Assembly: GCA_964016885.1 (NCBI GenBank)
Contig: OZ024746.1
Location: 56,854,001-56,918,000, forward strand
Reading direction: 5' to 3'
Source of the DNA: Eledone cirrhosa
Taxonomy: Eukaryota
Length of the DNA: 64,000 nucleotides
The notes under the pieces were generated by a model, which did no database searches, had not been told where the DNA came from, and saw nothing but the letters and a program-made list of their open reading frames with translations. Below are positions 1,665 through 63,719 of this stretch, one piece after another. Every line of letters starts with the position of its first letter. Positions within the stretch are counted from its first letter, which is position 1. Position numbers and translations under genes: made by a program.

Positions 1665-1735
<71 letters not shown>

Positions 1736-1804
1736 AAAAAAATCAATCTTTGTTTAAACTTTAATCTGTTATTTGTTACATATTTGCTCTAGGGTATATT
1801 TGAT

Positions 1805-3536
1805 AGCACTCTTATTCGATATGTGTATTTCCACATTCCCTCGAATTGTTTTCGCGGATATAGAGGTTATCTCCCTTGTCTAATGCCATGTGCGTTTTTC
1901 ACTGGTAGTTAGCCCCTTTTCCGCTAGGAAAAAAGCTCGTTGAGAAAGTAAACTCCGTTCCGCTTACTCTAGTAGGCTTTTATATTTATATGTGAGCTGA
2001 TAGAGTACAGTCTAAGGATTTACAGAAACCCATGAAGCTAGATTTAACACCTTTCTAGTGGGTCCGGGTATGATTTTACATTCATTTAAATTATTGATGT
2101 ATTGTTTTATTGATATTTTTTATCTGTTTGTCCCGAATCTTCTATTATCGATTTTTTATCGTATGGTTGATTGTAGACTTGTTCTATATGTGACGGTATT
2201 TTAACGATAGTTATAGCTCTGATTCATCTGAATTATTGAGCCCTCTGCCGCTCATTTCGAATTTTGTTTATCGTGAACTCGTGCGCCGATTTTTCGATAC
2301 TCGATCTTTCTAATACTTTTAGCTCTGGACATAGCTATCCACCAGTTAATTTTATTGCTCATTTTTTGTCGATTCTATTGAGTGATGAATAGCTTTTGTT
2401 TTTTTTAACATGTCTATTGAGCACTCTTATTCGATATGTGAATTTCCACATTCCCTCGAATTGTTTTCGCGGATATAGAGGTTATCTCCCTTGTCTAATG
2501 CCATGTGCGTTTTTCACTGGTAGTTAGCCCCTTTTCCGCTAGGAAAAAAGCTCGTTGAGAAAGTAAACTCCGTTCCGCTTACTCTAGTAGGCTTTTATAT
2601 TTATATGTGAGCTGATAGAGTACAGTCTAAGGATTTACAGAAACCCATGAAGCTAGATTTAACACCTTTCTAGTGGGTCCGGGTATGATTTTACATTCAT
2701 TTAAATTATTGATGTATTGTTTTATTGATATTTTTTATCTGTTTGTCCCGAATCTTCTATTATCGATTTTTTATCGTATGGTTGATTGTAGACTTGTTCT
2801 ATATGTGACGGTATTTTAACGATAGTTATAGCTCTGATTCATCTGAATTATTGAGCCCTCTGCCGCTCATTTCGAATTTTGTTTATCGTGAACTCGTGCG
2901 CCGATTTTTCGATACTCGATCTTTCTAATACTTTTAGCTCTGGACATAGCTATCCACCAGTTAATTTTATTGCTCATTTTTTGTCGATTCTATTGAGTGA
3001 TGAATAGCTTTTGTTTTTTTTAACATGTCTATTGAGCACTTTTATTCGATATGTGAATTTCCACATTCCCTCGAATTGTTTTCGCGGATATAGAGGTTAT
3101 CTCCCTTGTCTAATGCCATGTGCGTTTTTCACTGGTAGTTAGCCCCTTTTCCGCTAGGAAAAAAGCTCGTTGAGAAAGTAAACTCCGTTCCGCTTACTCT
3201 AGTAGGCTTTTATATTTATATGTGAGCTGATAGAGTACAGTCTAAGGATTTACAGAAACCCATGAAGCTAGATTTAACACCTTTCTAGTGGGTCCGGGTA
3301 TGATTTTACATTCATTTAAATTATTGATGTATTGTTTTATTGATATTTTTTATCTGTTTGTCCCGAATCTTCTATTATCGATTTTTTATCGTATGGTTGA
3401 TTGTAGACTTGTTCTATATGTGACGGTGTTTTAACGATAGTTATAGCTCTGATTCATCTGAATTATTGAGCCCTCTGCCGCTCATTTCGAATTTTGTTTA
3501 TCGTGAACTCGTGCGCCGATTTTTCGATACTCGATC

Positions 3537-3545
<9 letters not shown>
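1805..3545 (+). repeat. Tandem array of a 615-bp non-coding unit (~2.8 near-identical copies)
   Basis: GCACT[C/T]TTATTCGATATGTG recurs at 1806, 2421 and 3036 (period 615); array ends in (TA)n. Confidence 0.97.
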
Positions 3546-3600
<55 letters not shown>

Positions 3601-3609
3601 ATATATATA

Positions 3610-3663
<54 letters not shown>

Positions 3664-3777
3664 TCAAATAAATATATATATATATATAGTAAACAATTGA
3701 ACGGGAACAAAACAGAGAGGCAGTACGAACAAAGGTTTATTAGTTTCACGCTCTTGAGAGTGGGGTGGTGGTGGGGA

Positions 3778-3810
3778 ACGACGTTTCGGGCATATTCCCT
3801 TCTTCAGGTG
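3778..3810 (-). ncRNA. Minimal hammerhead ribozyme motif
   Basis: Minus strand: AC CUGAAGA AGGG-AAUAUG-CCC GAAAC GUC GU; stem I is only 2 bp. Confidence 0.7.
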
Positions 3811-5308
3811 AAAAGTGTGGGAAAGAGAGTTCCAAGTGTGTGTAGGGGAGTGGTGGAGAGAGATATAGAAAAAAGAGGGTGAGAGGAAACGGTACAAATG
3901 AAATTAAATATAAAAGCATAATAAAAATAAAAATAAAAATGAAGTAAAACAGGTGGTAGAAGGGTGTGGGGCGTGTAGGGGTGGTGGCGGGTGGAGTGGG
4001 GAGAGGGAGGCGGGGTTGCGAGCGGGGAGGGCTGAAGGTGGTGTGTGTGTGTAGGTGTACGTGTGTGTGTGTGTATGTGTATGTGAAAGTAAGAGTTGGG
4101 GGAAGAACGGGGTTGCATGTTCAGGATGAGGTGTGTGTGGGGTGGGGTGTACGTCGGTGTGTGTGTGCGTGTGTGGATGGGGAGGGGTGGGGGATAGGAT
4201 TCCGGAGGCTGAGTGTGTAAATATGTGGTGGTACGCACGTGTGTGTGTGGTGTTTATGCCTGTTGTGGATGTAAATGGCGTGTGGGAAAAAAAAAAATTG
4301 TTTAGTGTATGTCAGTGGGTGATTCATTAAGTTAGTTCCGTAGAGGATGAGGTGGAAAGCTGGGTAATATCCTTGGGATGTGGTAGATTCTAGGGATCGA
4401 TGTTCAATATGTGTAATCCGTGGTTGGTCGGAAGAGGGGAGATGTGGGGTGCGCGCGCAATAGGAAGTGGTCAGATGGTCAGGCAGGAGGAGGGTTGTGT
4501 GTCTGTGTGTGCGGGGAGGTAGTCAGAGATAAGGGCATAGCAGCAGTCACGTAGAATGGTAAGTGAAGAAAGTCGGTGTGTCAGTGTGTGCGGAGGTGCG
4601 GTGGACAGAGGAGAGGATGGGTAGGTGTGAACAATGGATTGAGGAGGGGGTATGTGTGTATTAGTAGAGGTGTTAGTGGCATGTGTGTGTGTGTGTGAAA
4701 AAGGGTGTGGGTGGTGCGGGGAGAGAAGGGTGTGGGGCCGGTGGAGGGAGTGTGGTGTACTGGTATGTGTGTGCGTGTTTGGATGAGTGTGTGTGTGGTG
4801 AAGGGGGTGTTACTGGGCGTTAGTATACTGAATGTGGGGAAAGGGTTGAATACGGGTGTGAGTGGTGGTCAGTGGTTGTAGGGTGTGTAGAGTGAGTGGT
4901 CTAAGTGGGTGTGTGTGTTCGTGTGCGTAGGGTTGGGGGTGTTAGTGATGTTAGATGCGTGTAGAGTGGGTGGTGTAAGTGGGTGTGTATGTTCGTGTGC
5001 GTGGGTTCTAGGGGTGTTAGTGATGTTAGTTGCGGGGTGGTGGGGTGGATGTGTAGAGGTGAGGGTTAGTGGTGGTAGTAGGGTGTGTGTTTAGTGTGAA
5101 CGCGTGTATATATGTACCGGTGGGTGTGTGCGTGTGATAAGGGGAGGGGAGGAGAAGAAGGGAGCGATGTTAGTATGTTCGTTGGAGAAGGGTAGTCGAG
5201 TTAGGGGTGGAGGTGTTAGTATTGTTAGTTGTGGGTGGGCGGTGAAAAGGAGGGGTGTGTTAGTGGTGTTAGTGGGGGATATGTGTGGGTGGAGGGGGCG
5301 GTCGAAGG

Positions 5309-5632
5309 CTAAATGAATAAGGGTGGGGAGTTCAGGCCGGGGGGAGTGTGGGTCTGTAGGGGGAACAGGGTTCGTTGTTCGACCCTGAGGAGAGTGGCGG
5401 GTGTTCCGTGGCATTGGAGTAGGCCACAGACTGTGACGTGGTGTGTGGAATGTCCGGGGGCACCAAAGTGGCGGGCGATGGGGGAACTACCACCAAGACG
5501 AATATCTCGGAGGTTTTCGGTAAAATGGTCCGCCAGGCGACGTCCAGTCTGTCCGACGATGTTGCGCTGCACTCCGTGCAGCGAAGTCCGTACACTAGGT
5601 TGGAGGAGGTGCAGCGGAAGGCATACCGTGCG
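5309..5632 (-). pseudogene. PLE GIY-YIG endonuclease C-terminal fragment
   Basis: ORFs 5332..5727 and 5309..5572 join across a frameshift to give the LVY..C..C / VGQT motif and CCHH residues. Confidence 0.85.
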
Positions 5633-5946
5633 TATATATATATATATATATATAAAAACAAATAACGAAACGAAATTAAATTTCGTTTCGTTTGTAACTC
5701 ACTTTTGTATGACTGACGCTTAAACAATTAAGTTAAAAATGTACATCCACATATGTATACTGAAATACTAGTATGCATATGAATACACACACGTATACAT
5801 ATGTAGATGTACCGAGTTTTTCACTGGTCACTTTACTGTGAGTGTCCAGCTATTCTGTATGTAAACACACAGACAAACCGGTTTTTAGAGTCATACTGGT
5901 TTTTGAGGAAACACCTTTCCTCTATTCTTCAGAAAGCCAAACAAGG

Positions 5947-5991
5947 AATATTGAACTAGTTTCGTTGTTGTTACAACTCATCAGCAATATT
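5947..5991 (-). ncRNA. Type I hammerhead ribozyme, intact core
   Basis: AAUAUUG CUGAUGA GUUG-UAACAA-CAAC GAAAC UA GUU^ CAAUAUU: 7-bp stem I, 4-bp stem II, palindromic ACUAGU stem III. Confidence 0.9.
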
Positions 5992-6412
5992 TACCTATCT
6001 TCCGGCCTTTCTAGAGAATCGTAAAAGCACATATCGTTATATGCTTTTTCTATGAAAATTAGTAGTGGGCAGACTAATTTGCATAGAGCGTGAGTACGTA
6101 CCGGTTCAACGGAGACGATAAAAACAAATAACGAAACGAAATTAAATTTCGTTTCGTTTGTAACTCACTTTTGTATGACTGGCGCTTAAACAATTAAGTT
6201 AAAAATGTACATCCACATATGTATACTGAAATACTAGTATGCATATGAATACACACACGTATACATATGTAGATGTACCGAGTTTTTCACTGGTCACTTT
6301 ACTGTGAGTGTCCAGCTATTCTGTATGTAAACACACAGACAAACCGGTTTTTAGAGTCATACTGGTTTTTGAGGAAACACCTTTCCTCTATTCTCCAGAA
6401 AGCCAAACAAGG

Positions 6413-6457
6413 AATATTGAACTAATTTCGTTGTTGTTACAACTCATCAGCAATATT
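6413..6457 (-). ncRNA. Hammerhead ribozyme, second unit copy (stem III C>U wobble)
   Basis: Same as 5947-5991 except GAAAU UA GUU. Confidence 0.8.
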
Positions 6458-6878
6458 TACCTATCTTCCGGCCTTTCTAGAGAATCGTAAAAGCACATAT
6501 CGTTATATGCTTTTTCTATGAAAATTAGTAGTGGGCAGACTAATTTGCATAGAGCGTGAGTACGTACCGGTTCAACGGAGACGATAAAAACAAATAACGA
6601 AACGAAATTAAATTTCGTTTCGTTTGTAACTCACTTTTGTATGACTGACGCTTAAACAATTAAGTTAAAAATGTACATCCACATATGTATACTGAAATAC
6701 TAGTATGCATATGAATATACACACGTATACATATGTAGATGTACCGAGTTTTTCACTGGTCACTTTACTGTGAGTGTCCAGCTATTCTGTATGTAAACAC
6801 ACAGACAAACCGGTTTTTAGAGTCATACTGGTTTTTGAGGAAACACCTTTCCTGTATTCTCCAGAAAGCCAAACAAGG

Positions 6879-6923
6879 AATATTGAACTAGTTTAGTTGT
6901 TGTTACAACTCATCAGCAATATT
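6879..6923 (-). ncRNA. Hammerhead ribozyme, third unit copy, G12U mutant (probably inactive)
   Basis: GAAAC has become UAAAC (plus strand GTTTAG instead of GTTTCG). Confidence 0.75.
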
Positions 6924-7373
6924 TACCTATCTTCCGGCCTTTCTAGAGAATCGTAAAAGCACATATCGTTATATGCTTTTTCTATGAAAATTAGTAGTGG
7001 GCAGACTAATTTGCATAGAGCGTGAGTACGTACCGGTTCAACGGAGACGATAAAAACAAATAACGAAACGAAATTAAATTTCGTTTCGTTTGTAACTCAC
7101 TTTTGTATGACTGACGCTTAAACAATTAAGTTAAAAATGTACATCCACATATGTATACTGAAATACTAGTATGCATATGAATACACACACGTATACATAT
7201 GTAGATGTACCGAGTTTTTCACTGGTCACTTTACTGTGAGTGTCCAGCTATTCTGTATGTAAACACACAGACAAACCGGTTTTTAGAGTCATACTGGTTT
7301 TTGAGGAAACACCTTTCCTCTATTCTCTAGAAAGGCCGGAAGATAGGTAAATATTGCATTTTTAACTTAATTG

Positions 7374-7960
<587 letters not shown>

Positions 7961-7974
7961 GTACATATATATAT

Positions 7975-8170
7975 AGGAACGAGTAGGACCCCGACGGCTG
8001 AGCTCAAGCCGTATCAACGGCTAATTCTGAGTTCAGAATCAGCCTTCGATACGGCTTGAGCTCAGCCGTCGGGTCCTACTCGTTCCTATTACCCACTCTA
8101 CTACCCTAAGTATTAAGTAATGTGGTGCGTTATGGGCCCATCTGGTTCCTTACCACATTTCCTTCGTTAT
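7975..8170. repeat. Foldback repeat, family Y
   Basis: AGGAACGAGTAGGACCC...GGGTCCTACTCGTTCCT arms of ~60 bp; homologues at 18313, 46010 and 52683; TA-flanked. Confidence 0.85.
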
Positions 8171-10347: not shown

Positions 10348-12021
10348 ATGAAATCAAGCAAAATGGACTCTTCCCCACCAAAGACGACTGACGTCACCAC
10401 CACCACAACTGAAACAAAAATTAATATTAACACAAATAACGATAGCAACAACAACAACAATGACATTATAACCCCCCCCCTCAGTTTCGCCAGGGTAGCA
10501 AAGCAGTTCGAAGCATTTACGGTAACTCAGGAGGATTTAGAAAATGCCAAACAACTGGTAAAGAAAGATGGGTACAGGGTCAGCCTCACCCCCCCCACAC
10601 ACCTAATAAAATGGAGCATCGGCGCCTATGCACAGTGTCGTATCGAATAATAAATGTAAAATCGCGCAGAGTGGAACGGGCATCCGAGTCCCAAATCCAA
10701 AAAGCTTTGGGACATGTGTGGGCAAGAAAAACCCACATCAGGCGTGGGCAGAAGTATGGAACCGTGGACGTGTTCTTTGAAACACCAGAGGAGGCTAGAG
10801 AACACTCCATGGCCCCATTAAGAAGTGACGACTTCACCCTTGTCCCAAGCTATTGTGACCAGAGACTCGTAAAGATCAGGCTGACCCACGTTCCACCGGC
10901 CATCGAAATTCCCTGGCTAATAGCGGCCGTCCTCGCCGGCATCGAAGACAACACAAAAATAATAACAATAGCAAAAGAAAAGCAGGAGAACTGGTCCGGA
11001 TCTGGGATGGAGCTCCTGATCCAAGCGGACCAAAAAAGCAATGAGGAGATCCCAGAGGTAATAGACCTCACTGACGGCAGCCACCTCACGGTAATTGTCG
11101 AGGGCAGAAGACCTAGGTGTGTCGTTTGTGGTGAAGGAACCCACCTAAGGGCTTTCTGCCCTCAGGCTAAAAGGTTGAGGCCACCTCTCCTACCCACCCC
11201 AGTGACACAACCATCAACACCACCAGTAGCAGAGATGGCAGCAACAACTGTAGCAGCAACAACAGAAGCAACTATAACAGCAACAACCCCAGCAACAGTA
11301 GCAAAACCAACACCACCACCACCCAACGCTTCAGAACTAGCACCAGCGCCTACACCATCCACCACGCCACAACCAAAACTAACGCCTGTGGAGGATTTTC
11401 CACTCCCCGGCCTATCACAACTGGAGACAGATTGTGACGACGAGGAGTGGGAAACGATATCCGGAAAAAAGAAGAAACCAAAAAAGAAAAAATTCTCTTC
11501 CTTCCCCCTCCAAAAACAAAATACAGAGGGAAACAAATAAACTAAGAAACAAAAAAGTTAGGACATATATGCCAACATCCACACCAGCATCACCAACCCC
11601 ATCAACCCAAACACCAACACCATCATCATCATTAACTCCAACACCACCATCACCTACACCACAAAAGTCACCAAAATGCAAAACAGAAACAAACCCACAA
11701 CAAACGCAAACAAAACAAAACAACCAAAACGATACACACTACACAGCATTAAATTTGAACAACAAGCAATTATTACACTACATCCAACACAACACCAGCA
11801 TCACAGAAAAAGACTACACAACAACCCCAAAATTCACACCACCTCTACACATACAAATCACTCACATCACACAGAAAACGTACATGACACTAAAGCAAAA
11901 ATTCCCCAAAGACATCGGATACTTCCGACAAGCACTCTCCAGGAGGATTTATAAGGACATCCTTCCTGAGGAGGGCACAAGCAGTGAAAAGGATGGAAAA
12001 ACCGTCCTTCCTCTACGATAA
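10348..12021 (+). pseudogene. Tx1 ORF1 (zinc knuckle, Pro/Thr-rich), split by probable frameshifts
   Basis: SFARVAK N-terminal motif; CVVCGEGTHLRAFC CCHC knuckle; WETISGKKKK; three overlapping ORFs switch frame near homopolymer runs. Confidence 0.8.
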
Positions 12022-12064
12022 GTAAGGTAAGTGGTCTTTCCCATCTTTTCCACTCCTTTTCAAC

Positions 12065-14468
12065 ATGACCTCACTCAGAATAGGCAGCATAAATGCGCGT
12101 GGCTTGGGGTCGTCATGGAAGCAGGGCCACCTGCTCAACGACCTCAGGTCACTAAACATAGATGTAGTGGCCATCAGCGAGACCAGAATCTCCGAAGCAC
12201 AGGCTTTCGCACCGATCTTCGGCGGCTACGATGTGTACGCATCTCCCAGCCGTCCGGAATCGGGGGGAGGAGTTGCTGTGCTTTTTCGGAGAGGTTTGGA
12301 TCTTGCCATACGGGCCATCATCCTGGACCCAGAAGGTAAGTTGGTGGTGCTGGACGTGACCAGCGGAGACGGGAAAGCTTTCAGGTTAGTGGCCGTCTAT
12401 GCCCCGACAGGAGCAGGGCGGCCTGGTTTGGATGGTCTGCCTTATGAATTTTACGTACAAATGCCAAACTTGTTCGGAGGCCTCTTGGCGGATTTCTACT
12501 GCAACTGGCAACAGAACGGGAGAATTCCCAGCTCTGTGAGCCGAGGAGCGGTGGCGCTGCTGAGAAAGGATCCGAACAAGGGGGATAACATAGATAATTT
12601 TAGGCCCATAACTCTGCTAAACACAGAGTTCAAGATTTTGGCCAAGGTGCTAGCAAAGAGGTTGGCGCTTGTCGTTGGTGGTCTGTTGGGAGAGGCACAG
12701 ACATGCGCCATTCCCGACAGATCCATTCACGACAACCTCCACCTCATGCGATACATCGTAGAGAGGGTAGCTAGGGAACCTGGCACGGGTGGGTCTCTGA
12801 TCAATTTAGATCAGTCGAAAGCCTTCGATAGGGTCGACCATCGTTACCTAGCGGCAGTCCTGAGGGCGGCTGGCTTTGGGCCCGTCTTCAGAGGCTGGAT
12901 CGCTGCCATGCACAGCGACATCTGCTCTGTAGTGAGAGTGAACGGTCACCTTTCGGAACCGTTCAACATCATGCGCTCGGTCCGCCAAGGATGTCCCCTC
13001 TCGTCCCTATTGTACGTATTGACTCTCGAGCCATTACTGCACAAACTGGAGACGTTGAGGGGGGTCCTGCGCGAACTAGGATGCGGAAGATCCGTGTCAG
13101 CATATGCCGACGATGTCACCGTAGTGGTGTCGAACGCCAAACACATCGAGGCGATCGGCACTACACTAAGAGAATACGAAGCGGTGACAGGAGCAATGAT
13201 CAACCAGGAAAAGTCAGTGGGTCTGCAATTCGGCACCTGGAGAGGCAGGTCCATGCCGTCCAACAGCGTCGTCGGGCGCTGGACGGACGGACCGGTTAAA
13301 TTGCTAGGGGTCTGGTTCGGTCCAGACCTCCAGACGGACAAAAACTGGGACGAGGTAACGAGCAGGGTGGCTTCTCTCACCCAGAAATGGGCTGAGAGGA
13401 AGCTATCCCTGAAAGGTCGAGCGGAGGTGGCGAATGCGTACATCGCATCCGTCATCTACTACCGCCTGACCGTCGTACCTTGTCCTATGCCCCGCCTAAC
13501 TGCGCTGGAGCGTTTGCTCTTTCGCTTCTTGTGGAAGGGACGCGCTCCGATGGTCAGGCGGTCCATCTGCTGTCAACACCCGCTACGTGGAGGGCTGGGC
13601 ATGCCGTGGCTGACGATGCGCAGACACGCGCACAGGCTACGACATAACCACCTCTTCCTCGACGGTGATCAGGTGTGGTCGCCGTTTGCTAGACACGTTT
13701 TTCCCCAGCTCGTCTCCTTGACGGAGCTGCAGTCCTGGGTCAAGCGAAGACCTAGAGGGAGCGCTTGGAGACTGCAATGTCTTCAGGCGCTCACAGCCCT
13801 CGACCAATCGGGCAATGTGATCGGTGGAAACTCCACCTTGGCGTTCTATAGGGGATTAGTGGAGGGGAAGAGCGACGATGTACTTGGAGAATCTCTAGGC
13901 GTCGACGAAAATCAACTAGCCAATCTCTTCGGAAGGATTTTCGGGCCGGGGCCTATGGACAACTTCCAGAAATCCCTGGCCTGGCAGTGCTACCGAGGAT
14001 CTTTGCCAGTTCGGGATAAACTCTACAGGCATGGAGGTGTCGTCAGCCGGGCATGTCCGAGATGCGCTCAGGGCGACGAAACCGTCCTGCACGCACTCGT
14101 CCAGTGTCCGAGCATTGCTGACTTCTGGGTTTATGTCGAACACCTGCTGTCACGTGTAGGACGGATCCAGCTATCAGCTGAGTCCATCGTGAGGATTGCC
14201 CCGCCCCCTTCCTTTAGCCGGGAAGGGCAGGCAGTTTTTATCTGTCAGGTGGCCATGGCGAAAGAGATAGTATGGTGGACACGTTTGAAAGGGCTGAAGA
14301 CGAGCACTTACCTCTTCGGTGATGCCCTGATTAACTTTTTCAAATTTCATTTGAAAAGGAAAATCAGGGTAGAGGGAAGTGCTCTCTTCCCAGCATTTTT
14401 TTGAAAAATGGGTGAGAGAAGCAAGTATGGCCCGAATGAATGGGCCTTCTCTGAGTATGTGTCTGTAA
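12065..14468 (+). CDS. Tx1 ORF2: partial APE endonuclease, RT and C-terminal zinc finger
   Basis: SINARGL, ISET, VYAP, then PGLDG, FRPITLLN, LDQSKAFD, VRQGCPLS, YADD, CPRC..H...C; annotated ORF stops at 14404 after a T-run frameshift, the homologous tail continues to ~14468. Confidence 0.92.
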
Positions 14469-14984: not shown

Positions 14985-15026
<42 letters not shown>

Positions 15027-15183
15027 AAAAGAAACGAAATTTCATTTCTCACTCTTAGTACGGCTGTTACTTAAATATAAGTATGTATACGTACATACAT
15101 ATATGTATACAGACGTACAGTAGTATGTATATATATACATACATGCACACATATATATATGTACGTTCAACACTGACAAAGGA

Positions 15184-15226
15184 ACGATGTACTAGTTTCA
15201 AGCTTATTTGCTATCGTCAGCACCGT
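15184..15226 (-). ncRNA. Type I hammerhead ribozyme
   Basis: ACGGUG CUGACGA UAGC-AAAUAA-GCUU GAAAC UA GUA^ CAUCGU. Confidence 0.85.
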
Positions 15227-15611
15227 ATACCATACTGCCAGATGATTGAACGTCTGAAAGTATATACTTTCCTCATTCATATTAACGGCTGAGCAGCTAA
15301 TTTGCATACCGAGTGAGTTAATCGGCCGTGCGCACCGAAAACGATAAATGGAAAAAAATGAAACGAAATTTCATTTCTCAACCTTAGTACGGCTGTTACT
15401 TAAATATAAGTATGTATACGTACATACATATATGTATACAGATGTACAGTATTATGTATATATATACATACATGCACACATATATATATGTACGTATGGA
15501 TTTACAGAGCATTTATTATAATGCTCGGTTTGTTTGTAAACAAACATCCCGAATTAAGCCGTACAGTGTTTAGCAACCATCGTTGCCCTTTTGTTCAACA
15601 CTGACAAAGGA

Positions 15612-15654
15612 ACGATGTACTAGTTTCAAGCTTATTAACTATCGTCAGCACCGT
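15612..15654 (-). ncRNA. Type I hammerhead ribozyme
   Basis: ACGGUG CUGACGA UAGUU-AAUA-AGCUU GAAAC UA GUA^ CAUCGU. Confidence 0.85.
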
Positions 15655-15986
15655 ATACCTTCCTGCCAGATGATTGAACGTCTGAAAGTATATACTTTCC
15701 TTATGCATATTAACGGCTGAGCAGCCTAATTTGCATATGGAGTGAGTTAATCGGCCGGGCGCACCGAAAACGATAAATGGAAAAAAATGAAACGAAATTT
15801 CATTTCTCATTCTTAGTACAGCTGTTACTTAAATATAAGTATGTATACGTTCATACATTTCGTCTTACGATATGCCATACAATTGTTTTAAGTGTGCAGA
15901 AACTCCCTTAGCATATAGCCACAACATTCTCTCTTTCTCGCTCTCCTCTGAATATATACACACTCGGACGTACACACATGTGCGTG

Positions 15987-16047
<61 letters not shown>

Positions 16048-16054
<7 letters not shown>

Positions 16055-16700
16055 CTGTATTTTTGACCGTTGGTCAGTCAATGGTAAACATTGAGGACCG
16101 AATAAATTAACTGATATGAAAGATACAGAAGCGAAAACCAACCTCTTAATAATTCTGGCAATATTATTACAACAATATGACCCCCACCGTATACATATAT
16201 ATTTATTAAAATAACAGATTAAAGTTTAAGCAAAGAATCGGTGCTTTCACCGTTAACGGGATCTTCTGAAACTAACATGTGAAAGCAGCGATTCTTTGCT
16301 TAAACTTTGATCTGTTATTTTAATAAATGTTTGCTCTACGGTTCTTATATATTTGATATATATTTATCCTTATCGAGCCCTCTTTGGATTTTAGTTTTCA
16401 AATTTATTATTATTACTATATATATATACGGTGGGAGGGTCATATTGTAATAATATTCCCAACATATATATATATATTTTATACGGTGGGAGGGTCATAT
16501 TGTTGTAAGAATATTGCCAGAATTAATAACAGAACACACTCACTGTTTGGTTGGTTTTCGCTTCTGTATCTTTTATATCAATTAATTTATTTGGTCCTCA
16601 ATGTTTACCATTGACTGACCAACGGTAAAAAATACAGGTATAATATAGACACAGACACATATATATAGTCTAACAACATTCTTTCATTGCACATCGGGCA
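16048..16700. repeat. Inverted pair of Naiad-like element tails with a nested HHR foldback (16200-16410)
   Basis: 16050-16190 and the reverse complement of 16480-16695 both match 24540-24780; inner hairpin carries the HHR variant at 16223-16273 (-). Confidence 0.82.
16223..16273 (-). ncRNA. Hammerhead motif with CAGAAGA (U4A) core
   Basis: AGUUU CAGAAGA UC-CCGUUAACGG-U GAAA GCA-CCGAUUCUU-UGC UU^ AAACU. Confidence 0.7.
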
Positions 16701-16708
16701 ATATTATT

Positions 16709-16896
16709 TGGATTGGCAGTATCGGTAAGGGTCGGATGCCATGCTTTGAAGCATAGAGTTACCTCCCTTTATGATCTGAGTTCAAATCCCGCCGAGGTTA
16801 ACTTTGCCTTTCATCCTTACGGGGTCGATAAAATAAAGTACCAGTAATACACTGGGATAATTGCTGGCCTTGTGCCAAAAGCAGAAACAATTATTA
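16709..16896 (+). mobile_element. tRNA-derived SINE (octopod-type)
   Basis: Box A TGGCAGTATCGG, box B GAGTTCAAATCC, body GCCTTTCATCCTTACGGGGTCGATAAAATAAAGTACCAG, tail GAAACAATTATTA. Confidence 0.9.
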
Positions 16897-18601: not shown

Positions 18602-19400
18602 TCTTTATTTGCCACCAGGGCATCAAAAAGTGGGACAAGTACAATGGGGGGAGTTTACAAAACAAGGCGTCCTCAATAAGGAGGAGGCAATAACAATATA
18701 TAAAAGTAAAATAAAATATAACAAAAAATAAAATTTATAACAAAGTCCTCACCTATAGTCTGATGTAGAGTGAAGGCCCATTCACACGGGCCATTCTCGC
18801 CACTTTCACCCATCTTTCATAAAAACGGCTGGGGTGCAGCACCTCTCTCTCCATCCTGATCCTTCTTCCGAAATGATATCGGTAGAAACGGACCAGTTGT
18901 TGGCCAGAGATAAAGGTGTCTGACCTCAGTGCTTTCAGACGCGTCCACCATACAACCTCTTTCGCCATGGTTATTACGCACAGAAACACCGCCTCTTCTT
19001 CGTTTTTGAAGAGGAGAGGCGGCTTGATCGTTACAATAGACTCGGTGGTCAACCGGATCGGTCCCACCCTTGACAGCAGTTGTTCGACATAGCTCCACAG
19101 ATCGGCAATGCCCAAGCAGTGTACCAATGCGTGTGCAACGGTTTCCTCGTCGCACACGCATCTGGGACAGATCTTTTTCGAGGGTCCCTACCCGGGCGCC
19201 CGTGTCTGTAGAGCCTTTCTCGAACGGGCAGAGCCCTTCTGTAGCATTGCCAGGCTAGGGACCTCTGGAAGTTATCCATGGGTCCCGGGCTGAATGTCCT
19301 ACCGAACAGGTTGGCCAGTTCGTCTTCCTCCATGCCTAGGGCTTCTCCGAGGGCGTCGTCGCACCTGCTAACCACCAGCCCACTATAGAACGACGAGGTG
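18596..19400 (-). mobile_element. 5'-truncated Tx1 LINE, second subfamily
   Basis: GPMDNFQRSLAWQCYR, EETVAHALVHC and ERWVKVARMARVNG; near-identical to 58005-58915. Confidence 0.92.
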
Positions 19401-19414
19401 TATATATGTATATA

Positions 19415-22400
19415 TAACAAACACAGGAGACCACTTAACATCAACAGAAAACCCCTCTACCCCAACCATTTTTTAGACACAGCACACAGATACAGGCAAA
19501 CAAAATAACACAAGACAGAGAGGAGAAACCGATGGTAATAAAAATTATAAATCTTACTAGTGCAGAACCAACACCCAACCTTATCAACTTACTCTCCAAA
19601 GGTCTTAAATTCACACCGTCCTAACTACTATGAAATGAAGGAAGACATCACGAACTTCTGTAGAAAGTTACGACTCAGTGAACAACTATTCGACCAGTAC
19701 AATGAGGATGAATCATTCAAACTTCCCTTACCAACACTTGCACAGACAAAAACACAAGCCAAACCTCAACAAGAAAGAATGGGAAGAATTAAATAGATTA
19801 AAAACCGACAGAACCATTACAATTAAAGAGGCTGATAAAGGGAGTACAGTAGTCCTAATGGAGACAGAATTCTATATCAACTTAGCGCTCTCCACTTTGG
19901 AAAACGAAACATACTACGAAAAGGCTGAACACTACAATCAACAGAAAATTATGAGAAACCTAAAAACTCTGATCAACCAATACAAAGAAGGACTCACTAA
20001 CAAGGAATTCAGCTTCATCACAGACTTCAGAAGTAAATCCAGCATTTTCTACGGTATCCCTGAATTACATAAAAGCGAATTAATAAGTAAGGCGTGCAAG
20101 GAAGCCACAGACATAGTCATCAATGTCCCCTCACACAATGATCTCAAATTAAGACCTATAATAGCAGGTCCCGCTTGCGAAACCCACCGCCTTAGCAACT
20201 TCATTGATACACTTCTTAAGCCTTTTCTCAAACACATCAAAAGCTATATAAGGGACGACCTAGATATGCTCAATCACCTCCCTAATATGCCACTTTCTGA
20301 ACAAACCCTACTAGTGACGTTCGATGTAGTCAACCTATACTCCAACATCCCCCACAACCTAAGAATAGAAGCTATCCAATTCTGGCTGGATAATTACCAC
20401 AATGAACTCCCACAACGCATCAAAAAAGAATTCGTGATAGAGGGACTCAAATTTGTCTTGGAGAACAATTACTTTGTTTTCAATAACAAACCCTACAGGC
20501 AGAAATCTGGGACCGCTATGGGAACGAAAACAGCCCCCACTTATGCCAACCTAGTCATGGGATACCTGGAAATCACCCTCTACACTAAAGTCCTAAACAA
20601 ATTTGGAAACACTCTCCACTTACACATAGAAAGGAACTGGAAGCGATATCTAAATGACTTCTTCATCCTTTGGCACGAAAACATTGAGAAACTTAAACAA
20701 TTTCACACCCTTATAAATGGGCTCAACACGAATATTAACTTCACGATGGAATACAGCCATCAACCACTCCCCTTCCTCAACATCCTCATTAAGATCCATA
20801 ACAAAAAAATAGAAACAGACATATACTACAAGCCCACAGACTCGATGCAATATCTTCCTTTCAACTCTTGCCACCCTAGACACGTTAAAATTAATATTCC
20901 CTACAACTTAGCCAAGAGAATCTGTACTATAGTCTCCAATAAAAACACCTGCTACTTACGGCTACAAGAACTAAAGGACACACTAATAGGCAGAGACTAC
21001 CCTGCATCACTAATTGACAATGGAATCCAACGTGCCCTAAAACTCAGTACCAAGGACCTTAGACACCCTAAAGTAAATCAACCGAAACTAAAAGCTCTTC
21101 CATACATCTCCACACACAACCCCCTCAACAATGAGGCCTTTGACACCATCCTCCAGAACATCCCTGTGTTGAAAAAGGACCACAGAATGAACCAAATCCT
21201 ACGAACACACGATATCATGAAGAGCAAAAGACAATCTAAGTCAATGAAAAACATCCCAACACATTCCAAAGTAATGCAAACCACAACAACGAAACCCACA
21301 GTAAAAAAATGCGATAGACCCAACTGTGGCATTTGCATCAACCTAATAGAGGGTTCGGAATTCTATTTCAAAGAAGGACAACGTTTTATAGTAAAACACA
21401 ATTTCACATGCGCATCAGAAAATCTAATATATGTATTAACTTGCTCAGGTTGTCGAGAACAGTACATAGGCCAGACCAAAAACAGCCTCCGCCAACGCAT
21501 GACTGTCCATAGATCCCAAATTAAAATACGGGAATACAGGAAAATACCACTGAGTGAACACATTGATACCTGTACCGCCCAAAATCATCCCAACTTCAGA
21601 ATCTTTCCCTTCTACAAATATAAAGATAATGCCACCCACACCCAGCGCATCAGCAAGTAATCTTACTTTATTAACAAATACGGACCCCGTCTAAACACTT
21701 TCCCTAAGACGAACCCACAACATACACACGTCAACATACATACCTACATCAGCATACATCTCTACCCACATATAAACACAATGACATACGTAAACACACA
21801 TGTTCTATGGTGCAACACAAATATACACAAATTTGCATACCTTGTGATGTCTATAGATATAAACGTGCCGACACACACACATACATAAACGCACACATGC
21901 ATTGCACACTGATGGGCACATACATATTTGTGCACAGGTATTCCAATACGGCAAGGCCTAATGAATTCCCCTTGCAGTACGTACAATCTGGACACACTCC
22001 AGATACATATTTGTGCACAGGTATACAATTTCTGGACACACCCACACACACCTTGGTATTATACCAATACGATATATCATTTCACACCTTTTATTATTGA
22101 GGTTTTTGATGTTCTATTGAGAGAATCGATTTTACTGAAAATATGGAATAAGGTACACCATTTTACCAGCAAAAAATACTGGTCCACCCACACACACACA
22201 TTCTCTCACGCACACACACACGCGCGCTTCTCCGTATAAGACAAGAGCTGAAAAATATCTTTTAACATGTTTAAATATCCCCCACACATGTACAGACACA
22301 TTCCTACTGACCATCCCTCTACCACGAATTACTCTGCTACCCCCCCCCCTCCACACACACACTCGTCTTAATAGGCATTTGAACTGTCAACAGGCTGCGG

Positions 22401-22858
22401 TTCGCACACACATCCCTGCTGACCATTATCACAACAACGTACCTCTTTACTACTACTACACACACAACACACATATTTGTTGTAAAAGACTTATTTCTCC
22501 GTCAGCTGACACAAACCTACATTTGGCGCAAAATCAATTTTTTACGTTCACAAGATCTCTACCGACCAATCAAAATTGTTTTGACCACAAGAATTTTTGC
22601 AACACGAATTTGTGCAAAACTTATTTTAATAACGCTTCAGCCACTTTTTTAACATAAAACAGGTAGAATTCCCAAAACTAATCAGATCAGAGCAAACATC
22701 ACGGACGCTCTATCTCAAAATTATTTTTGAAAAGCATTAGAAATGCGCAACCGGTATAACTAAAAATCAAAACTGAATACTAACGAATACTATTACTAAT
22801 TCTCACTTATTCCTAATTAAACTATTTTTCACTGTGAACAATTTGTCCGTTTACCAAT
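19415..22858 (+). mobile_element. Near-complete Penelope-like element (Neptune-like)
   Basis: N-terminal IINLT...LLSKGLKFTP at ~19540-19620, RT plus GIY-YIG ORF, ~1.1-kb 3' UTR, (TA)n at both ends. Confidence 0.93.
19678..21710 (+). pseudogene. PLE RT-GIY-YIG polyprotein, mutated
   Basis: ADKG, LRPII, FDVVNLYSNI, GTAMGT, RYLND (normally YxDD), CDRPNCGIC linker, LIYVLTCSGC..YIGQT; TAA at 21658 is premature because the copy at ~50895 reads GAG. Confidence 0.92.
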
Positions 22859-22884
22859 ATATATATATATATATATACATATAT

Positions 22885-24270
22885 ACTGATCAGGTAAGAA
22901 AAATGGTCGCACATGCAATAGGGGCTAGTATCAAAACTACCCTAAAGGGCCACATATTTAAGCTCAATGAGAAAATCTACACCCAAAATGAGGGAGCAGC
23001 CATCGGCGTCAGCATGGCTGGTGATGTTGCCAACCTTTTCATGGTATGGTGGGAAAGGAGACTTAAAGATCTCCTTAATGAAAGCTCCATAGACCTCATC
23101 ATGTACTCTCGTTATGTAGACGATATCAATATAGTTATAAGAACACCCCCACTAGAGAGCACTAACAAGTTTGATTTAGAACGTAGCACGATGGAAAGCA
23201 TCCAGCAGATAGCTAATTCCATACACCAGAGTATAACTGTAACTATAGACTTCCCTTCCAAACACCCTAACAATAGACTACCTGTATTAGACACAGAACT
23301 CTGGATTAACACTATAGACGAGAGAGCCCAAATTCTCCACTCACACTATGCTAAACCCATGGCCTCCAAATACCTGATACTCAAAAACTCAGCAATGTCC
23401 AGTAGTGCTAAGTTTAATATTCTGATCGCAGATTTGGTACGAGTGATGAAGAATGTGTCCAGCATGTGCGACCCAACAGAAATGGAAGGACACATCCAAC
23501 ACTTCATCAACCGCATGCAGTTCTCTGGCTACAACCAAAGAGACAGAGTCAGAGTATACGAAGGAGCCATGGAAAAGTATAAGACCCTCATAGAACTGGA
23601 CATGAAAGGAATTTGCCCACTATACAGGAGCAAATCATGGAATAGCTTAGATAGGGCTAGACATAAGATAGGGAAGGCCACATCATGGTACGACAACCAG
23701 AGATATCAGAGTGTCATGTTTGTGGACGCCACCCCTGGAGGGAAATTAGCTAACCAGTGTAGAAAGGCCCTGAGAAAGACCCACTTAAAAATAAAGGTGG
23801 TAGAAAAGCCAGGAACCACCATAAAATCCCTGATCAGCAAAACCTACCCTTTTAAGAAAACCCACTGTACCAATAGGAAATGTATCATATGTAAGGTGAA
23901 CCCCCGGATAAACTGTAAAACTAGAAACGTAGTCTATAGCATAAGATGTACAGAGGGTACTTGCAGAAACATGACAACAACATACATAGGTGAGACAGCT
24001 CGTAGCATAGGTGAAAGGATAGACCAACACTGGGGGGAACTAAAAGGACGAAAAAACGGGTCAGTACTATACGAACATGCTAGACAACAACATGACGGTA
24101 ACATAGACAACATAGAAATTAGAATAATATCTAAACATAGGAATGACCCAGCAGATAGGCAAATCAGAGAGGCCAGTGAAATAGAAATTAGAAGACCAAA
24201 GCTAAACAGAAAGAATGAGTGGAATAGCAACAACACCCAAACAAACAACACTGACCTAAGAGAAGTATAA
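22885..24270 (+). CDS. PLE RT C-terminal half plus GIY-YIG, uninterrupted
   Basis: GAAIGVSMAGDVANLFMVWW, RYVDD, LPVLD, YAKPMAS, MQFSGY, CTNRKCIIC, NVVYSIRC...YIGETAR, PKLNRKNEW. Confidence 0.9.
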   Translation, partial: TDQVRKMVAHAIGASIKTTLKGHIFKLNEKIYTQNEGAAIGVSMAGDVANLFMVWWERRLKDLLNESSIDLIMYSRYVDDINIVIRTPPLESTNKFDLERSTMESIQQIANSIHQSITVTIDFPSKHPNNRLPVLDTELWINTIDERAQILHSHYAKPMASKYLILKNSAMSSSAKFNILIADLVRVMKNVSSMCDPTEMEGHIQHFINRMQFSGYNQRDRVRVYEGAMEKYKTLIELDMKGICPLYRSKSWNSLDRARHKIGKATSWYDNQRYQSVMFVDATPGGKLANQCRKALRKTHLKIKVVEKPGTTIKSLISKTYPFKKTHCTNRKCIICKVNPRINCKTRNVVYSIRCTEGTCRNMTTTYIGETARSIGERIDQHWGELKGRKNGSVLYEHARQQHDGNIDNIEIRIISKHRNDPADRQIREASEIEIRRPKLNRKNEWNSNNTQTNNTDLREV

Positions 24271-24782
24271 ATAAGTAAATAAAATAAAATAAAATAAGAT
24301 AAATAAATACATACACAAGCACATAAACACACACTAGTCACCCATCAGACACAACACTATACACACTAGTCACACATCACACATAACACTATACACACAC
24401 GCAAACGCATACGCAAAGAAGACAAAATAAAATAAGATAAACAAACAAGCAAATAAATAAATAAATATATAGACAGACTGAACAAAAAAAAATGGCGTAG
24501 ACATACAACACAACAGGAGGAACAATGAACGACGATGTTGCAGATGTGCAACGAAAGATTTATGTAAATTATGTAAACTATATATATGTGTTTGTGTCTA
24601 TATTGTATCTGTATTATTTTTGACCGCCGGTCAGTCAATGGCAACATTGAGGACCGAGTAAGTTAGATCGCAGATATATATACATAAAAGACAGCGAGAA
24701 GCGAAAACCAACCAAACAGTGAGTGTGTTCTGTTATTAATTCTGGCAATATTACGCAAATATGACCCTCCCCAAATATAACA
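22885..24782 (+). mobile_element. 5'-truncated Penelope-like element (Naiad-like) with 3' tail
   Basis: Open RT-GIY-YIG frame followed by a tail ending in (TA)n; tail homologous to 16048-16700. Confidence 0.88.
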
Positions 24783-24847
24783 TATATATATATGTATACA
24801 CATATTAAACACCTACATAGACACACGAACGGATATATATATATACG

Positions 24848-28052: not shown

Positions 28053-28387
28053 AAACGATAATGACAAAACAAATGGTAACAACAGAAATAACTACATTAA
28101 TAACAACAACAACGATGACAACACTAACAACAACGATGACAACAATAACAACAATACCTTTACAGCAACAGGCGCAAGAGGAAAGCAAGTTAACGGGACT
28201 ATTTTGGAAAAAGAGGCACAAGTTAGTCATAAACGGCCAAACGTATAAAACTAAAGAAATCATGGGTTAACATAATAACCATCGGCAGACACCCATAAAA
28301 ACTGTAATTTAGAAATGCGTTTCAACAAATACGAATCGGCCGGAATAAGCGAATAAGGCCGGAGAAGAAAGAACACTGAATAGGATC

Positions 28388-28575
28388 ATTTTTTCTACTT
28401 TTGGCACAAGGCCAGCAAATATCCAAGTGCCTTACTGGTACTTTATTTTATCGACACGTAAGGATGAAATGTAAAGTTAACCTCGGTGGGATTTGAACTT
28501 AGACAGTAAAGGGACATTACTCTATGCTGGAAATCATGGCGTCTGACCATTCTTTGATACTGCCAATCCACCGTA
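28388..28575 (-). mobile_element. SINE copy
   Basis: TTTCTACTTTTGGCACAAGGCCAGCAA...GATACTGCCAATCCACCG. Confidence 0.88.
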
Positions 28576-29862
28576 GAAGATGATAATGCCCGACATACAG
28601 CACATTGTGAAGACCAGGAAATTTGCGGATATGTCAGTTCTCTGGAAGATTGAAGCCCGGCCTGTCAAACATTCTGTGGTAGCCTATCGGAGTGACAAGT
28701 ATGTCATATTTAGGGAGAAGAAATGTATGGATAAAGAATCCAAGGATCCAGAAGTGAATATATTGTTGGACATTGGTCAGCATCCTTCTAGAACGAAGCA
28801 ATACTCTCTTCGAATTGGAGAACCTGATCCGGATTCAGTGTGTAGGCACTAATCGAAATCAAATCAGATAACATCCACAAGATCCCAGATCTCATCCGGC
28901 GCGGAGATGCTTAATGTGGTTGAGGAAAGAAAACATTGATGCCATCTGTGGAGTTTGGGAGTTTGACCACTTAGTAACATCAAGAACAGTGACAGCAAAA
29001 CCACAATTACAGCAGCAACACCTCCAGCAGCAGCACCTCCAGCAGCAACAGCAATATCAACAACGCCACCAAAAGCGGGAGAAAATTCACACCACAACCA
29101 TCAGCAGCAGAATGAGACGCAGCAGATATCATGAAAATCACCGAGAGGATCTCTCACTGAAGCTGTTCCTGGGTTACTCCACTCCCCCCCTCTCTCTCTG
29201 TCTCTCCGTGTCCTTAAATGCAATACACAAGGACCCAACTCTACCTCAAATACTAAGAGTGAATGGTTCTACTCGTAACAAGTATGACTCGGACTTATGG
29301 GTTTCCACAACTGTCCCTTTTTGAGTTTGAGACGATAAGCTTAATTCATTCGAGTATTAAAAGGGGGATAAAACAATGAGGTGATGATACTGGTGATGAT
29401 GATGATCTTAGTAAGGAGTAGGAGGATGATATCAATTATACCTCAACATATCCTTACAAATATTATGTGGAAAACCTAGAAAAATATAATCATTACAACT
29501 ATATGTTCTCTTAATGATTTCACATTTAAGACTCTTTTGGGGCGATGGGCATCGTATCATTTGAAAAAGGCTGAAATATATCACAGATGACCAGTCTTAA
29601 GGAAATTCATTCAATACATTATAATAAATAAATATCAGCCTAGACCGACGGAATAGCTATGGTAACAAGTATTACAAATCGTAAATATGGTGAGATTTGT
29701 TTGTTAAGGGGAAAAAGAAGCATCTTATAAGATGCGAGAAGCATCGAAACTGGCAAATTTAATTATGTTACATATTACATAGATGTGGAAAAAGAATGGA
29801 AAGTGCCTTTTTTGTGTGTAAATTACGTCTATATGGTATTTCATAGTTTTCGTACTAATAAT

Positions 29863-30037
29863 TGTTTCTACTTTAGGCACGAGGCCAGCAATTACCCAGT
29901 GCATTACTGGTATTTTATTTTATCGACCCCGTAAGGATGAAAGGCAAAGTCAACCTCGGCGGGATTTGAACTCAGATCGTAAAAGGACGTAACTATGCTG
30001 GAAAGCATGGCGTCCGACCCTCTACCGATACTGCCAA
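29863..30037 (-). mobile_element. SINE copy with 15-bp TSD
   Basis: TTTCGTACTAATAAT at 29848-29862 and 30038-30052. Confidence 0.93.
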
Positions 30038-43804: not shown

Positions 43805-44530
43805 TAATAATTGTTTCTACTATGGGCACAAGGCCAGCAATAACCAGTGCATTACTGGTACTTTATTTCATCGACCCCGTAAGGATGAAAGGCAAAGTTA
43901 ACCTCGGTGGGATTTGAACCAGAATGGCAAGGGCCGTAACTCTATGCGTCAAAGCATGACGTCCCAGCCTCTACCGATACTGCCAATCTACCGCCTAATA
44001 CTAAATCATAATAATAAATAATAATTATTTCTAGTATAGGCACAAGGCCAGTAATTTGGTGGGAGGGGAAAGTCGATTAAATTGAAACCGAGCACGTTAC
44101 TGCTGCTTTAGTTTATCGACCCCATAAGGCAAAGTTAATTTCGCCGGAATTTGAACTCTATCCTGCAAAGATTGCTGTCCGACCCTATCAATTCTGCCAA
44201 TCCACTGCCCAACTACTACTACTAATAATAATAATTGTTTCTACCCTTGGCACAAGGCCAGCAATTATCCCAGTATATTACTGGTACTTTATTTTATCGA
44301 CCCCTTAAGGATGAAAGGCAAAGTTAACCTCGGCGGACTTTGAACTCAGTACGTAAAGGGACGTAACTCTGCTGCAAAGCATGGCGTCCGACCCTCCACC
44401 GATACTGCCAATCCACCGCCCACTATTATAATAATAATAATGATTCTACTATAGCGCAAGACCAGCAATTTGTGGGGATTGACCCCAGTGCTTTATTTTA
44501 TCGACTGCGTAATGATGAAAGGCAAAGCTA
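43805..44530 (-). mobile_element. Cluster of four head-to-tail SINE copies
   Basis: Tails start at ~43810, 44027, 44235 and 44442, separated by (TAA)/(TAC) runs. Confidence 0.9.
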
Positions 44531-62898: not shown

Positions 62899-62905
<7 letters not shown>

Positions 62906-63695
62906 GGGAAAAATGAAAAGAAATTTCATTTCCCACTCTTAGTATGGCTCTGACTTCAATATAAGTATGTACACGTACATACATATATGTATACAGACGT
63001 ACAGTAATATGTATATATATATACATACATGCACACATATATATATGTACGTATGGATTCACCGAACATTTATTATAATGCTCGGTGTGTTTGTAAACGA
63101 ACATACGGGATGTTCGTTTACAAACACACCGAGCATTATTATAATAATGTTCAGTGAATCCATACGTACATATATAAATATATATATATATATGTGTGTT
63201 CATGTATGTATATATATATACATACTACTGTACGTCTGTATACATATATGTATGTACGTGTACATACACATATTTATGTAATAGCCGTACTAAGAGTGGG
63301 TAATTAAATTTCGTTTCATTTTTTCCGTTTATCGTTTTCGGTGCACCCGGCCGATTGGCCCACTCGATATGTAAATTGGGCTACGCAGCCGTTAATATGC
63401 ATAAGGTAAATATATACGTTCAACTGTCTGGCAGGAAGGTATACGTTGCTGACGATAATTAATAAGCTTGAAACTAGTACAGCGTTCCTTTGTTAGTGTT
63501 GAACAAACGAGCAACGATGGTTGCTGGACACTACGGCTTAATACGGGATGTTTGTTTACAACCACACCGAGCATTATAATAAATGTTCGGTGAATCCATA
63601 CGTACATATACATATGTGTGCATGTATGTATATATATATACATACTACTGTACGTCTGTATACATATATGTATGTACGTGTACATACTTATATTT
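62899..63695 (+). mobile_element. Third locus of the 428/466-bp HHR unit family: inverted partial unit plus ~1.3 tandem units
   Basis: 62899-63100 is inverted relative to 63118-63330; homologous to 15023-15860. Confidence 0.87.
63443..63485 (+). ncRNA. Type I hammerhead ribozyme
   Basis: ACGUUG CUGACGA UAAUU-AAUA-AGCUU GAAAC UA GUA^ CAGCGU; stem II is weak in this copy. Confidence 0.8.
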
Positions 63696-63719
63696 ATATA
63701 TATATATATATATTTATAT

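Follow-up and report, generated by a model that had tools for sequence, protein, structure and literature searches.

A protein-free hammerhead repeat of Eledone cirrhosa as a probable non-LTR retrozyme with the insertion footprint of Penelope-like elements

How does a short repeat that encodes no protein come to be copied, many times over, into the microsatellites of a genome? The question is raised by an array of 466-bp units in a 64,000-nucleotide stretch of Eledone cirrhosa DNA (GenBank assembly GCA_964016885.1, contig OZ024746.1, positions 56,854,001 to 56,918,000, forward strand; hereafter the window). The original prediction placed head-to-tail units with one hammerhead (HHR) each at three loci of the window and assigned them to an apparently undescribed retrozyme family mobilized by the reverse transcriptase (RT) of a Penelope-like element (PLE). 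Our analysis leads to a related reading, to which, taken jointly, we give a probability of about 0.8: the high-copy, protein-free hammerhead repeat is a non-LTR retrozyme, likely copied into (TA)n by a PLE reverse transcriptase-endonuclease, and the window copy at 5652-7375 is a single recent two-armed insertion.

The repeat unit and its ribozyme

A tandem with a period of 466 bp (3.6 copies, 99% matches) runs from 5652 to 7334, and its minus strand carries three type I hammerheads with C3 at 6916, 6450 and 5984 and predicted cuts after 6886, 6420 and 5954 (Table 1). With the unit numbered from the base directly after the predicted cut and read in the sense of the RNA, this long arm starts at unit position 18, crosses the three hammerheads and terminates at unit 302, the long (L) end, where it adjoins the (TA)n. 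The period and the three minus-strand hammerheads vindicate the predicted head-to-tail 466-bp units for 5652-7334, but 7322-7375, which had been included with them, is a short inverted arm and no further tandem unit. In this arm, unit 401-436 (7322-7357) is joined to unit 213-231 (7357-7375) by a template switch, and the 13 bp that the two arms have in common lie at a base-paired stem. Both flanks of the insertion are (TA)n, so that any target-site duplication would be unreadable there, and the copy carries seven private substitutions, two of them within hammerheads.

Table 1. Features of the repeat, its relatives and candidate helper elements, in window coordinates
Positions	Strand	Feature	Remark
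5633..5651	.	(TA)n microsatellite, left half of target	
5652..7334	-	Long arm, head-to-tail unit	449 + 466 + 466 + 302 nt
5652..5720	-	Tail, unit 234-302, between both fixed arm ends	Concept from PMC11167929, PMC8557442
5944..5997	-	Intact type I hammerhead	Predicted cut 5954/5953 (GUU)
5954..6419	-	One monomer, cut to cut	466 nt
6131..6159	-	13-bp palindromic hairpin (unit 261-289), directly 5' of long-end site	Predicted
6207..6277	-	Long AU-rich hairpin (unit 143-213), directly 5' of short-end site	Predicted
6410..6463	-	Second hammerhead	C15.2 to U at 6425; predicted cut 6420/6419
6876..6929	-	Third hammerhead	Core G12 to U at 6895
7322..7375	+	Short inverted arm	Two unit pieces; ends at short (S) site against (TA)n
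7376..7415	.	(TA)n microsatellite, right half of target	
15023..15858	-	428-bp subfamily, single arm	L end in (TA)n; C3 at 15648 and 15220
19639..22860	+	Copy of 784-aa PLE family (RT + GIY-YIG)	Second candidate helper
22886..24790	+	5'-truncated copy of young 1217-aa PLE family	Candidate helper, outside repeat
62900..63696	.	428-bp subfamily, head-to-head	(TA)n on both sides

Among the three hammerheads of the array only the copy with C3 at 5984 is fully intact: its core is unaltered, stem I is bulged, stem II has 5 bp and stem III consists of one pair capped by palindromic CUAG. The expectation that the core and the ACUAGU stem III are kept holds for this copy and fails for the other two: C15.2U in the 6450 copy disrupts the palindrome, with a predicted dimer duplex of -5.7 versus -8.0 kcal/mol, and the 6916 copy bears G12U, which, given the role of G12 in the core, likely makes it inactive. 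Pairing of stem III within a monomer has a computed probability of zero, a value that derives in part from the minimum loop size of the folding program and gives a weak, model-based hint of cleavage as a dimer. In the axolotl ribozyme HHR_Amex1, whose stem III is likewise a single pair under a palindromic tetraloop, monomers cleave poorly whereas dimers cleave well (PMC7229834), and retrozyme circles as well as dimer cleavage with a one-pair stem III have been reported (PMC7229834, Cervera and de la Pena 2020). The best Rfam match in 1700-7500 is Hammerhead_HH9 (RF02275; 35.9 bits, E 2e-6, under the gathering score of 52), with an alignment that takes in the core, the bulged stem I and stem II and spans the full model, save for five model positions absent from stem III; at the gathering threshold Rfam gave no match anywhere in the window. 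Low-scoring matches to miRNA families were discarded as AU-rich hairpin noise.

Conservation of the hammerhead fold is evident from 18 aligned copies drawn from the 466-bp and ~428-bp subfamilies, which are about 67-74% alike in local alignments. In the hammerhead register 96.2% of 288 cells are paired, as against 33-52% in slid-register controls, and seven of 16 stem pairs have changes on both sides; since these copies are related and were picked to span variants, the covariation shows fold conservation and the shuffle count is not to be read as a probability. Every cell of stem I pairs in all 18 copies, the stem I sequences being as first described (AAUAUUG/CAAUAUU, ACGGUG/CAUCGU and ACGUUG/CAGCGU), and within the 466 family alone stem II too changes on both sides. 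The compensatory changes said to extend across three loci are thus real, but the loci represent two subfamilies and not three independent points. Because the hammerhead covaries between subfamilies that are only ~70% alike, its cleavage appears, at the level of sequence, to be under selection.

Coding content is as minimal as had been claimed: in multimerized units the longest stop-free stretch is 60 codons for the 466-bp unit and 77 for the 428-bp unit. The unit has 36% GC, and a strand of one unit has a folding energy of -160 kcal/mol (z -11.5 versus shuffles); in a predicted circular fold, hammerhead stems I and II remain formed. Both hairpins of Table 1 have predicted counterparts in the 428-bp subfamily, and in either subfamily each fixed arm end (see below) lies ~13-20 nt 3' of one of them. 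No LTR structure is present, and resolved insertions are made of unit sequence alone.

These properties match those of animal non-LTR retrozymes, which are likewise built of tandem units without an ORF, each a few hundred bases long and with a single type I hammerhead, and which have less than 50% GC, extensive self-pairing, thousands of copies and co-resident PLEs (PMC7229834; bioRxiv 10.64898/2026.07.22.740005), and by its sequence the element meets the definition of that class. Its size, thought to be at or above the usual, falls inside the published range: repeats of 150-450 bp are given in PMC7229834 and consensus lengths of 51-972 bp in bioRxiv 10.64898/2026.07.22.740005. The literature, searched apart from Repbase and Dfam, yielded nothing on this family, nor on inverted arms, tails or two fixed ends in retrozymes; the family may therefore count as undescribed, but the class and its PLE link are already in print, PLE mobilization of retrozymes having been proposed in PMC7229834 and bioRxiv 10.64898/2026.07.22.740005.

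The two other loci belong to the 428-bp subfamily, which shares with axolotl HHR_Amex2 a U-U at the base of stem II (PMC7229834). At 15023..15858 two hammerheads stand 428 bp apart, in keeping with the spacing and the hammerhead-bearing arm foreseen for 15023-15860, but the last unit has a ~97-bp deletion. The locus taken for head-to-tail units with one HHR each (62899-63695) is of a different build: a minus arm (62900-63104) that ends at unit 274 (L) faces a plus arm (63103-63696) that ends at unit 217 (S), and the latter contains the one hammerhead of the whole insertion (C3 at 63449), with a mismatch in stem II. A further 428-type subfamily (L103-L110) has units of ~484-538 bp, longer because a TA microsatellite is growing inside the long hairpin.

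Eledone cirrhosa has a genome of 3.0 Gb, rich in TA microsatellites, in which the hammerhead of the 466 family, sought as an exact 34-base pattern, occurs at least 6,079 times; a looser pattern that takes in both subfamilies matches 35,198 times, and neither reversed control gives a match. Junctions of the L end with (TA)n number 2,197 genome-wide (control, 2) and S junctions 774 on the forward strand, reverse-strand counts being inflated by overlapping matches. We rely on pattern counts because DNA-similarity searches list only a minor share of the family (42 candidates). The shortest arrays fall short of one unit and the longest reach ~30 units; the family is young, abundant, dispersed and mobile. 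At the 5' end of one single-armed copy (L022:1440-1510), the sequence passes without a gap into a hammerhead-like core from a different repeat family, possibly a template switch between two ribozyme-bearing RNAs.

Two fixed arm ends

As a rule, a 466-family insertion has one arm that ends at unit 302 (L, 301-303) and another that ends at 227-233 (S). Among 36 loci picked by similarity, 28 were resolved and all are L/S, with ends at 302 and 228-233, with one unresolved and seven one-armed; among 25 picked by position from the hammerhead lists, the 20 resolved loci are again all L/S, including four whose second arm of only ~12-19 nt was read by eye from the flank, with one unresolved and four one-armed. 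Both samples together give 48/48 resolved loci, and two arms, the second an adjacent inverted 5'-truncated copy, are present at 50 of the 61 loci and one arm at 11. A test on listed L and S junctions in the first 120 Mb of contig C1, which overlaps the position-picked sample, returned 46 head-to-head pairs, of which 44 were L/S, one S/S and one L/L (P 1.5e-11). On inspection the S/S pair is genuine (L212:1050-2685, 228/228, accompanied by a small duplicate of an end piece); the apparent L/L pair (L211) proved to be an S/L insertion next to a separate arm. The 428-bp subfamily obeys the same rule, its ends at unit 274 and 217 being homologous to those of the 466 unit: among 29 fetched places and the window, all 12 resolved insertions are L/S, and the others are one-armed, cut off or ambiguous, one element in L069 remaining ambiguous; a motif-based end caller is unreliable at the S end of this subfamily, which is bordered by a TA-like hairpin.

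Homology to the target does not set the arm ends, since many unused positions are more TA-like than the used sites: these have one to three alternating bases, and at least four occur at 10 positions of the 466 unit and 28 of the 428 unit. The 5' ends vary. Arms run freely across the ribozyme cut site, and no more than 2/84 5' ends come within 10 nt of it, against 3.8 expected. Either arm may be the longer, the S arm being so in L012, L042, L043, L044, L050, C18 and the arrays at C1:5.74 Mb. The inner (5') ends of the two arms lie within 45 nt of each other in 15/42 insertions, where 8.2 would be expected (P 0.01). Two further patterns were set aside: a cluster of 5' ends at the base of the long hairpin (8/84 in unit 205-217) is not significant (P 0.285 after correction for scanning), and a gap in 5' ends at unit 172-204 was seen post hoc and may be an alignment effect.

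Might the arrays be a DNA satellite that spread by recombination between TA microsatellites and carries a fossil hammerhead? Every flank is indeed a microsatellite, and in one long array non-adjacent units share variants, which points to growth at the level of DNA. Such recombination leaves unexplained the fixed 3' ends, the variable 5' ends and the strand asymmetry, as well as the compensatory changes of the ribozyme and an L/S rule identical to that of RT-encoding PLEs (see below); we regard it as scarcely credible and, as the origin of the insertions, largely refuted, although it may explain later array growth. In the 30-unit arm at G000:C1:5.738-5.753 Mb (L159-L160), the variants common to non-adjacent units cluster at unit 22-56, directly 3' of the cut, and reflect growth of the array after insertion or, alternatively, errors that the RT made repeatedly on a structured stretch.

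Penelope-like elements of the same genome

Two PLE families with intact ORFs, encoding proteins of 784 and 1217 aa, were compared with the retrozyme candidate. The 784-aa protein matches Pfam RVT_1 and GIY-YIG; its family has a tandem period of 4,734 bp, 45,394 search candidates and an open frame at L112:1138-3489, with no canonical hammerhead core between its ORFs and apparent further coding sequence upstream. For the 1217-aa protein Pfam gives no match; it does align with the 784-aa protein (E 1e-8) and contains YVDD and GIY-YIG-like motifs. It also has a CxxxxCxxC linker, a feature of the Neptune and Nematis clades according to Craig et al. (PMC8557442). The family is very young, with copies 99-100% identical, 22,555 search candidates and a tandem period of 4,137 bp (L141:1327-4977); ahead of the RT its ORF has a long asparagine-rich stretch, asparagine-rich inserts being known from rotifer PLEs (PMC3846280), and the hammerhead core of the family has a weak stem I. 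The protein closest to a resident PLE comes from Octopus vulgaris (69% identity), in keeping with a cephalopod host.

Insertions of both families lie in (TA)n, and the autonomous elements, 4.1-4.7 kb long, are two-armed and multi-unit. The 1217-aa family has S ends at 526-537 and L ends at 576-591, and 14/14 resolved insertions are L/S among 15 loci, which were picked for opposite-strand ORF pairs; the 784-aa family, with ends at 1083 and 1121, is L/S in 3/3 resolved insertions of five loci examined. The repeat thus carries a PLE footprint, as it shows the same L/S rule and the same (TA)n target as two intact PLE families, and the mobilization by a PLE RT that had been surmised for it gains support from the two fixed arm ends that it has in common with co-resident PLEs.

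The likeness extends to what has been published on PLEs. Their insertions, too, comprise partial tandems with an adjacent inverted 5'-truncated copy and a tail of 30-40 bp on one end (Craig et al. 2021, PMC8557442; Arkhipova et al. 2013, PMC3846280), and they share the (TA)n bias and two internal RT start sites (PMC8557442, PMC3846280, PMC11167929). In vitro, the tail is bounded by these two start sites, both target strands are cut and extended, and a dimeric PLE protein is predicted (Frangieh et al. 2024, PMC11167929); non-PLE sequence bounded by pLTRs can be moved in trans (PMC8557442, PMC3846280, PMC11167929). The repeat differs in having no ORF, in a longer tail of 57-74 nt and in assigning, almost strictly, one arm to each site; in the in vitro study, by contrast, the two strands did not differ in start site, and the tail has been called optional. 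It also differs from retrozymes as portrayed in the available parts of the 2020 and 2026 papers, where inverted arms, fixed ends and a tail are not described; the words "tail" and "initiation" are absent from the accessible text of the 2026 preprint.

Another reading is that the unit is the pLTR of an autonomous PLE and that the arrays are 5'-truncated PLE copies. A pLTR origin of retrozymes has been proposed (bioRxiv 10.64898/2026.07.22.740005), and Xenopus retrozymes resemble pLTRs, with homology in 21-24/57 families (Li, Clavereau and Pollet 2026); the hammerheads of PLE pLTRs lie 200-300 nt upstream of both ends, a spacing like that of the unit, and our comparison took in two PLE families and a minor share of the 6,079 copies. 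Within that scope, DNA comparison of the 466-bp unit with both PLE units shows no significant similarity, resolved insertions contain nothing but unit sequence over up to ~30 units, no unit copy is continuous with a PLE ORF among the loci examined, and PLE protein matches near the arrays are separate insertions. Inspection of 30 of 202 variant-length ACUAGU hammerhead matches found none tied to an ORF of the two families; as candidates for a parent PLE these were rejected, being indel variants of the family or unrelated motifs. The case singled out beforehand as fatal to a retrozyme is accordingly not what the resolved insertions and the two PLE families present, and we consider a pLTR identity very unlikely.

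Other repeats of the window also end in TA microsatellites. An ORF-less tandem at 1805-3545 (period 615 bp, 2.8 copies, 99.7% alike), overlooked by the tandem finder because its period exceeds 500, ends in (TA)n and has a related piece at 7423-7737 and a fold z of -3.2; it contains no canonical hammerhead core and no Rfam ribozyme match, and is possibly a ribozyme-free repeat moved by a PLE. Ends of further repeat families, among them terminal pieces that resemble those of PLEs as well as a long inverted-repeat element, are stacked in TA microsatellites at 7702-7931, 7975-8160 and 16054-16428. The window also contains a LINE-type element at 10464-14404 (pieces at 57253-58659 and 18746-19404) with an upstream ORF and an endonuclease/RT/zf-RVT ORF, and nine dispersed ~185-bp repeats, 79-96% alike and probably a SINE, at 16709-16896, 28385-28570, 29856-30038, 43805-43988, 44229-44415, 47070-47251, 47692-47878, 48099-48286 and 56491-56673.

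Template and priming

We posit that the retrozyme is copied as follows. Tandem copies would be transcribed in the hammerhead sense, and paired hammerheads would cut by way of the ACUAGU palindrome to give 466-nt monomers that a host ligase would close. A PLE protein, probably a dimer, would bind the structured RNA and cut both strands of (TA)n, and cDNA would be primed from each target 3' end, one per fixed internal site. Each cDNA would extend 5'-ward for a variable length, through the ribozyme junction and over several rounds of the unit, and joining of the two cDNA ends would leave two arms head to head, of which one carries the tail. Counting against this reading are, among others, the one true S/S insertion and a tail longer than published for PLEs.

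The nature of the template can be narrowed down. A cut linear monomer it is not, because arms cross the cut and so few inner ends lie near it. Given the retrozyme reading, we think it moderately probable, judging from the sequences, that the template is the ligated monomer circle, which is favored by free crossing of the cut, by a selected ribozyme and by private differences that are fixed within an insertion while units scarcely vary among themselves. In 24 insertions, five more being left out for too little overlap, the two arms have 283 derived variants in common as against 77 differences, a comparison that partly reflects subfamily membership; an arm is nearer to its partner than to the nearest other locus in 17/24, equally near in three and farther in four. 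One array with 22 full units over both arms has a single substitution variant, and another has 18 fixed substitutions and one difference. Private variants common to both arms favor a ligated circular template without proving it. Four contig sets of unrecorded kind contain the family and a 466-base back-joint, which was rejected as evidence of circles, as a tandem DNA repeat yields the same joint; a search of sequencing runs listed no RNA run with the repeat.

Alternatively, the same element and PLE helper could use an uncut linear multimeric read-through transcript, with circles as by-products or absent. Hammerhead cleavage is dispensable for PLE insertion in vitro, unprocessed RNA being the main substrate of the anole PLE (PMC11167929), and eight of nine predicted Xenopus retrozyme dimers failed to cleave in vitro (bioRxiv 10.64898/2026.07.22.740005). 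Moreover, the autonomous PLEs of this genome display the same two-armed multi-unit pattern, the 784-aa family does so without a canonical hammerhead core between its ORFs, and young homogeneous source arrays could account for identical units. Set against this, cleavage appears to be selected, yet arm 5' ends do not accumulate at the cut as would be expected from partly cut multimers, and fixed private differences with almost no variation between units suggest a bottleneck of one unit. We hold a linear multimer to be possible, if on balance doubtful; long arrays may also grow after insertion, because non-adjacent units of the 30-unit array share variants.

How the second arm arises bears on a further possibility, proposed for the inverted junctions of PLEs (PMC3846280), in which the L-primed cDNA folds back, copies itself as the inverted arm and, by this arm, attaches to the target at the S site. 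The excess of closely spaced inner ends is in line with self-priming, and arm 5' ends are likewise within ~40 nt of each other in 5/14 PLE insertions, from loci picked partly for close inverted ORF pairs. A fold-back copy cannot exceed its template arm, yet the S arm is the longer in many retrozyme insertions and in several of the 1217-aa PLE. Self-priming is therefore improbable as the general route and may apply to a minority of insertions; the frequently longer S arm fits independent priming at both target ends, and the nearness of inner ends fits either some fold-back or two enzymes that move together.

Combining independent priming with the circular template, we tentatively envisage a PLE dimer loaded on one ribozyme-made circular RNA, its subunits at different start sites, priming both (TA)n ends and rolling round the circle, with the RNA mimicking a pLTR by shape and not by sequence. 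If so, each insertion would record an obligate asymmetric two-site priming event, the repeat would be a viroid-like parasite of Penelope elements, and its RNA would offer a ready 466-nt substrate for dissecting PLE integration. Entry of retrozymes into genomes has so far been argued from co-occurrence and pLTR resemblance; thousands of insertions with the footprint of two resident PLE families provide direct anatomical support for mobilization by PLEs. Conversely, the near-strict pairing of one L with one S arm per insertion constrains the unsolved mechanism of PLE integration, for which this family supplies exact start sites (unit 302 and 228-233) on a short non-coding RNA.
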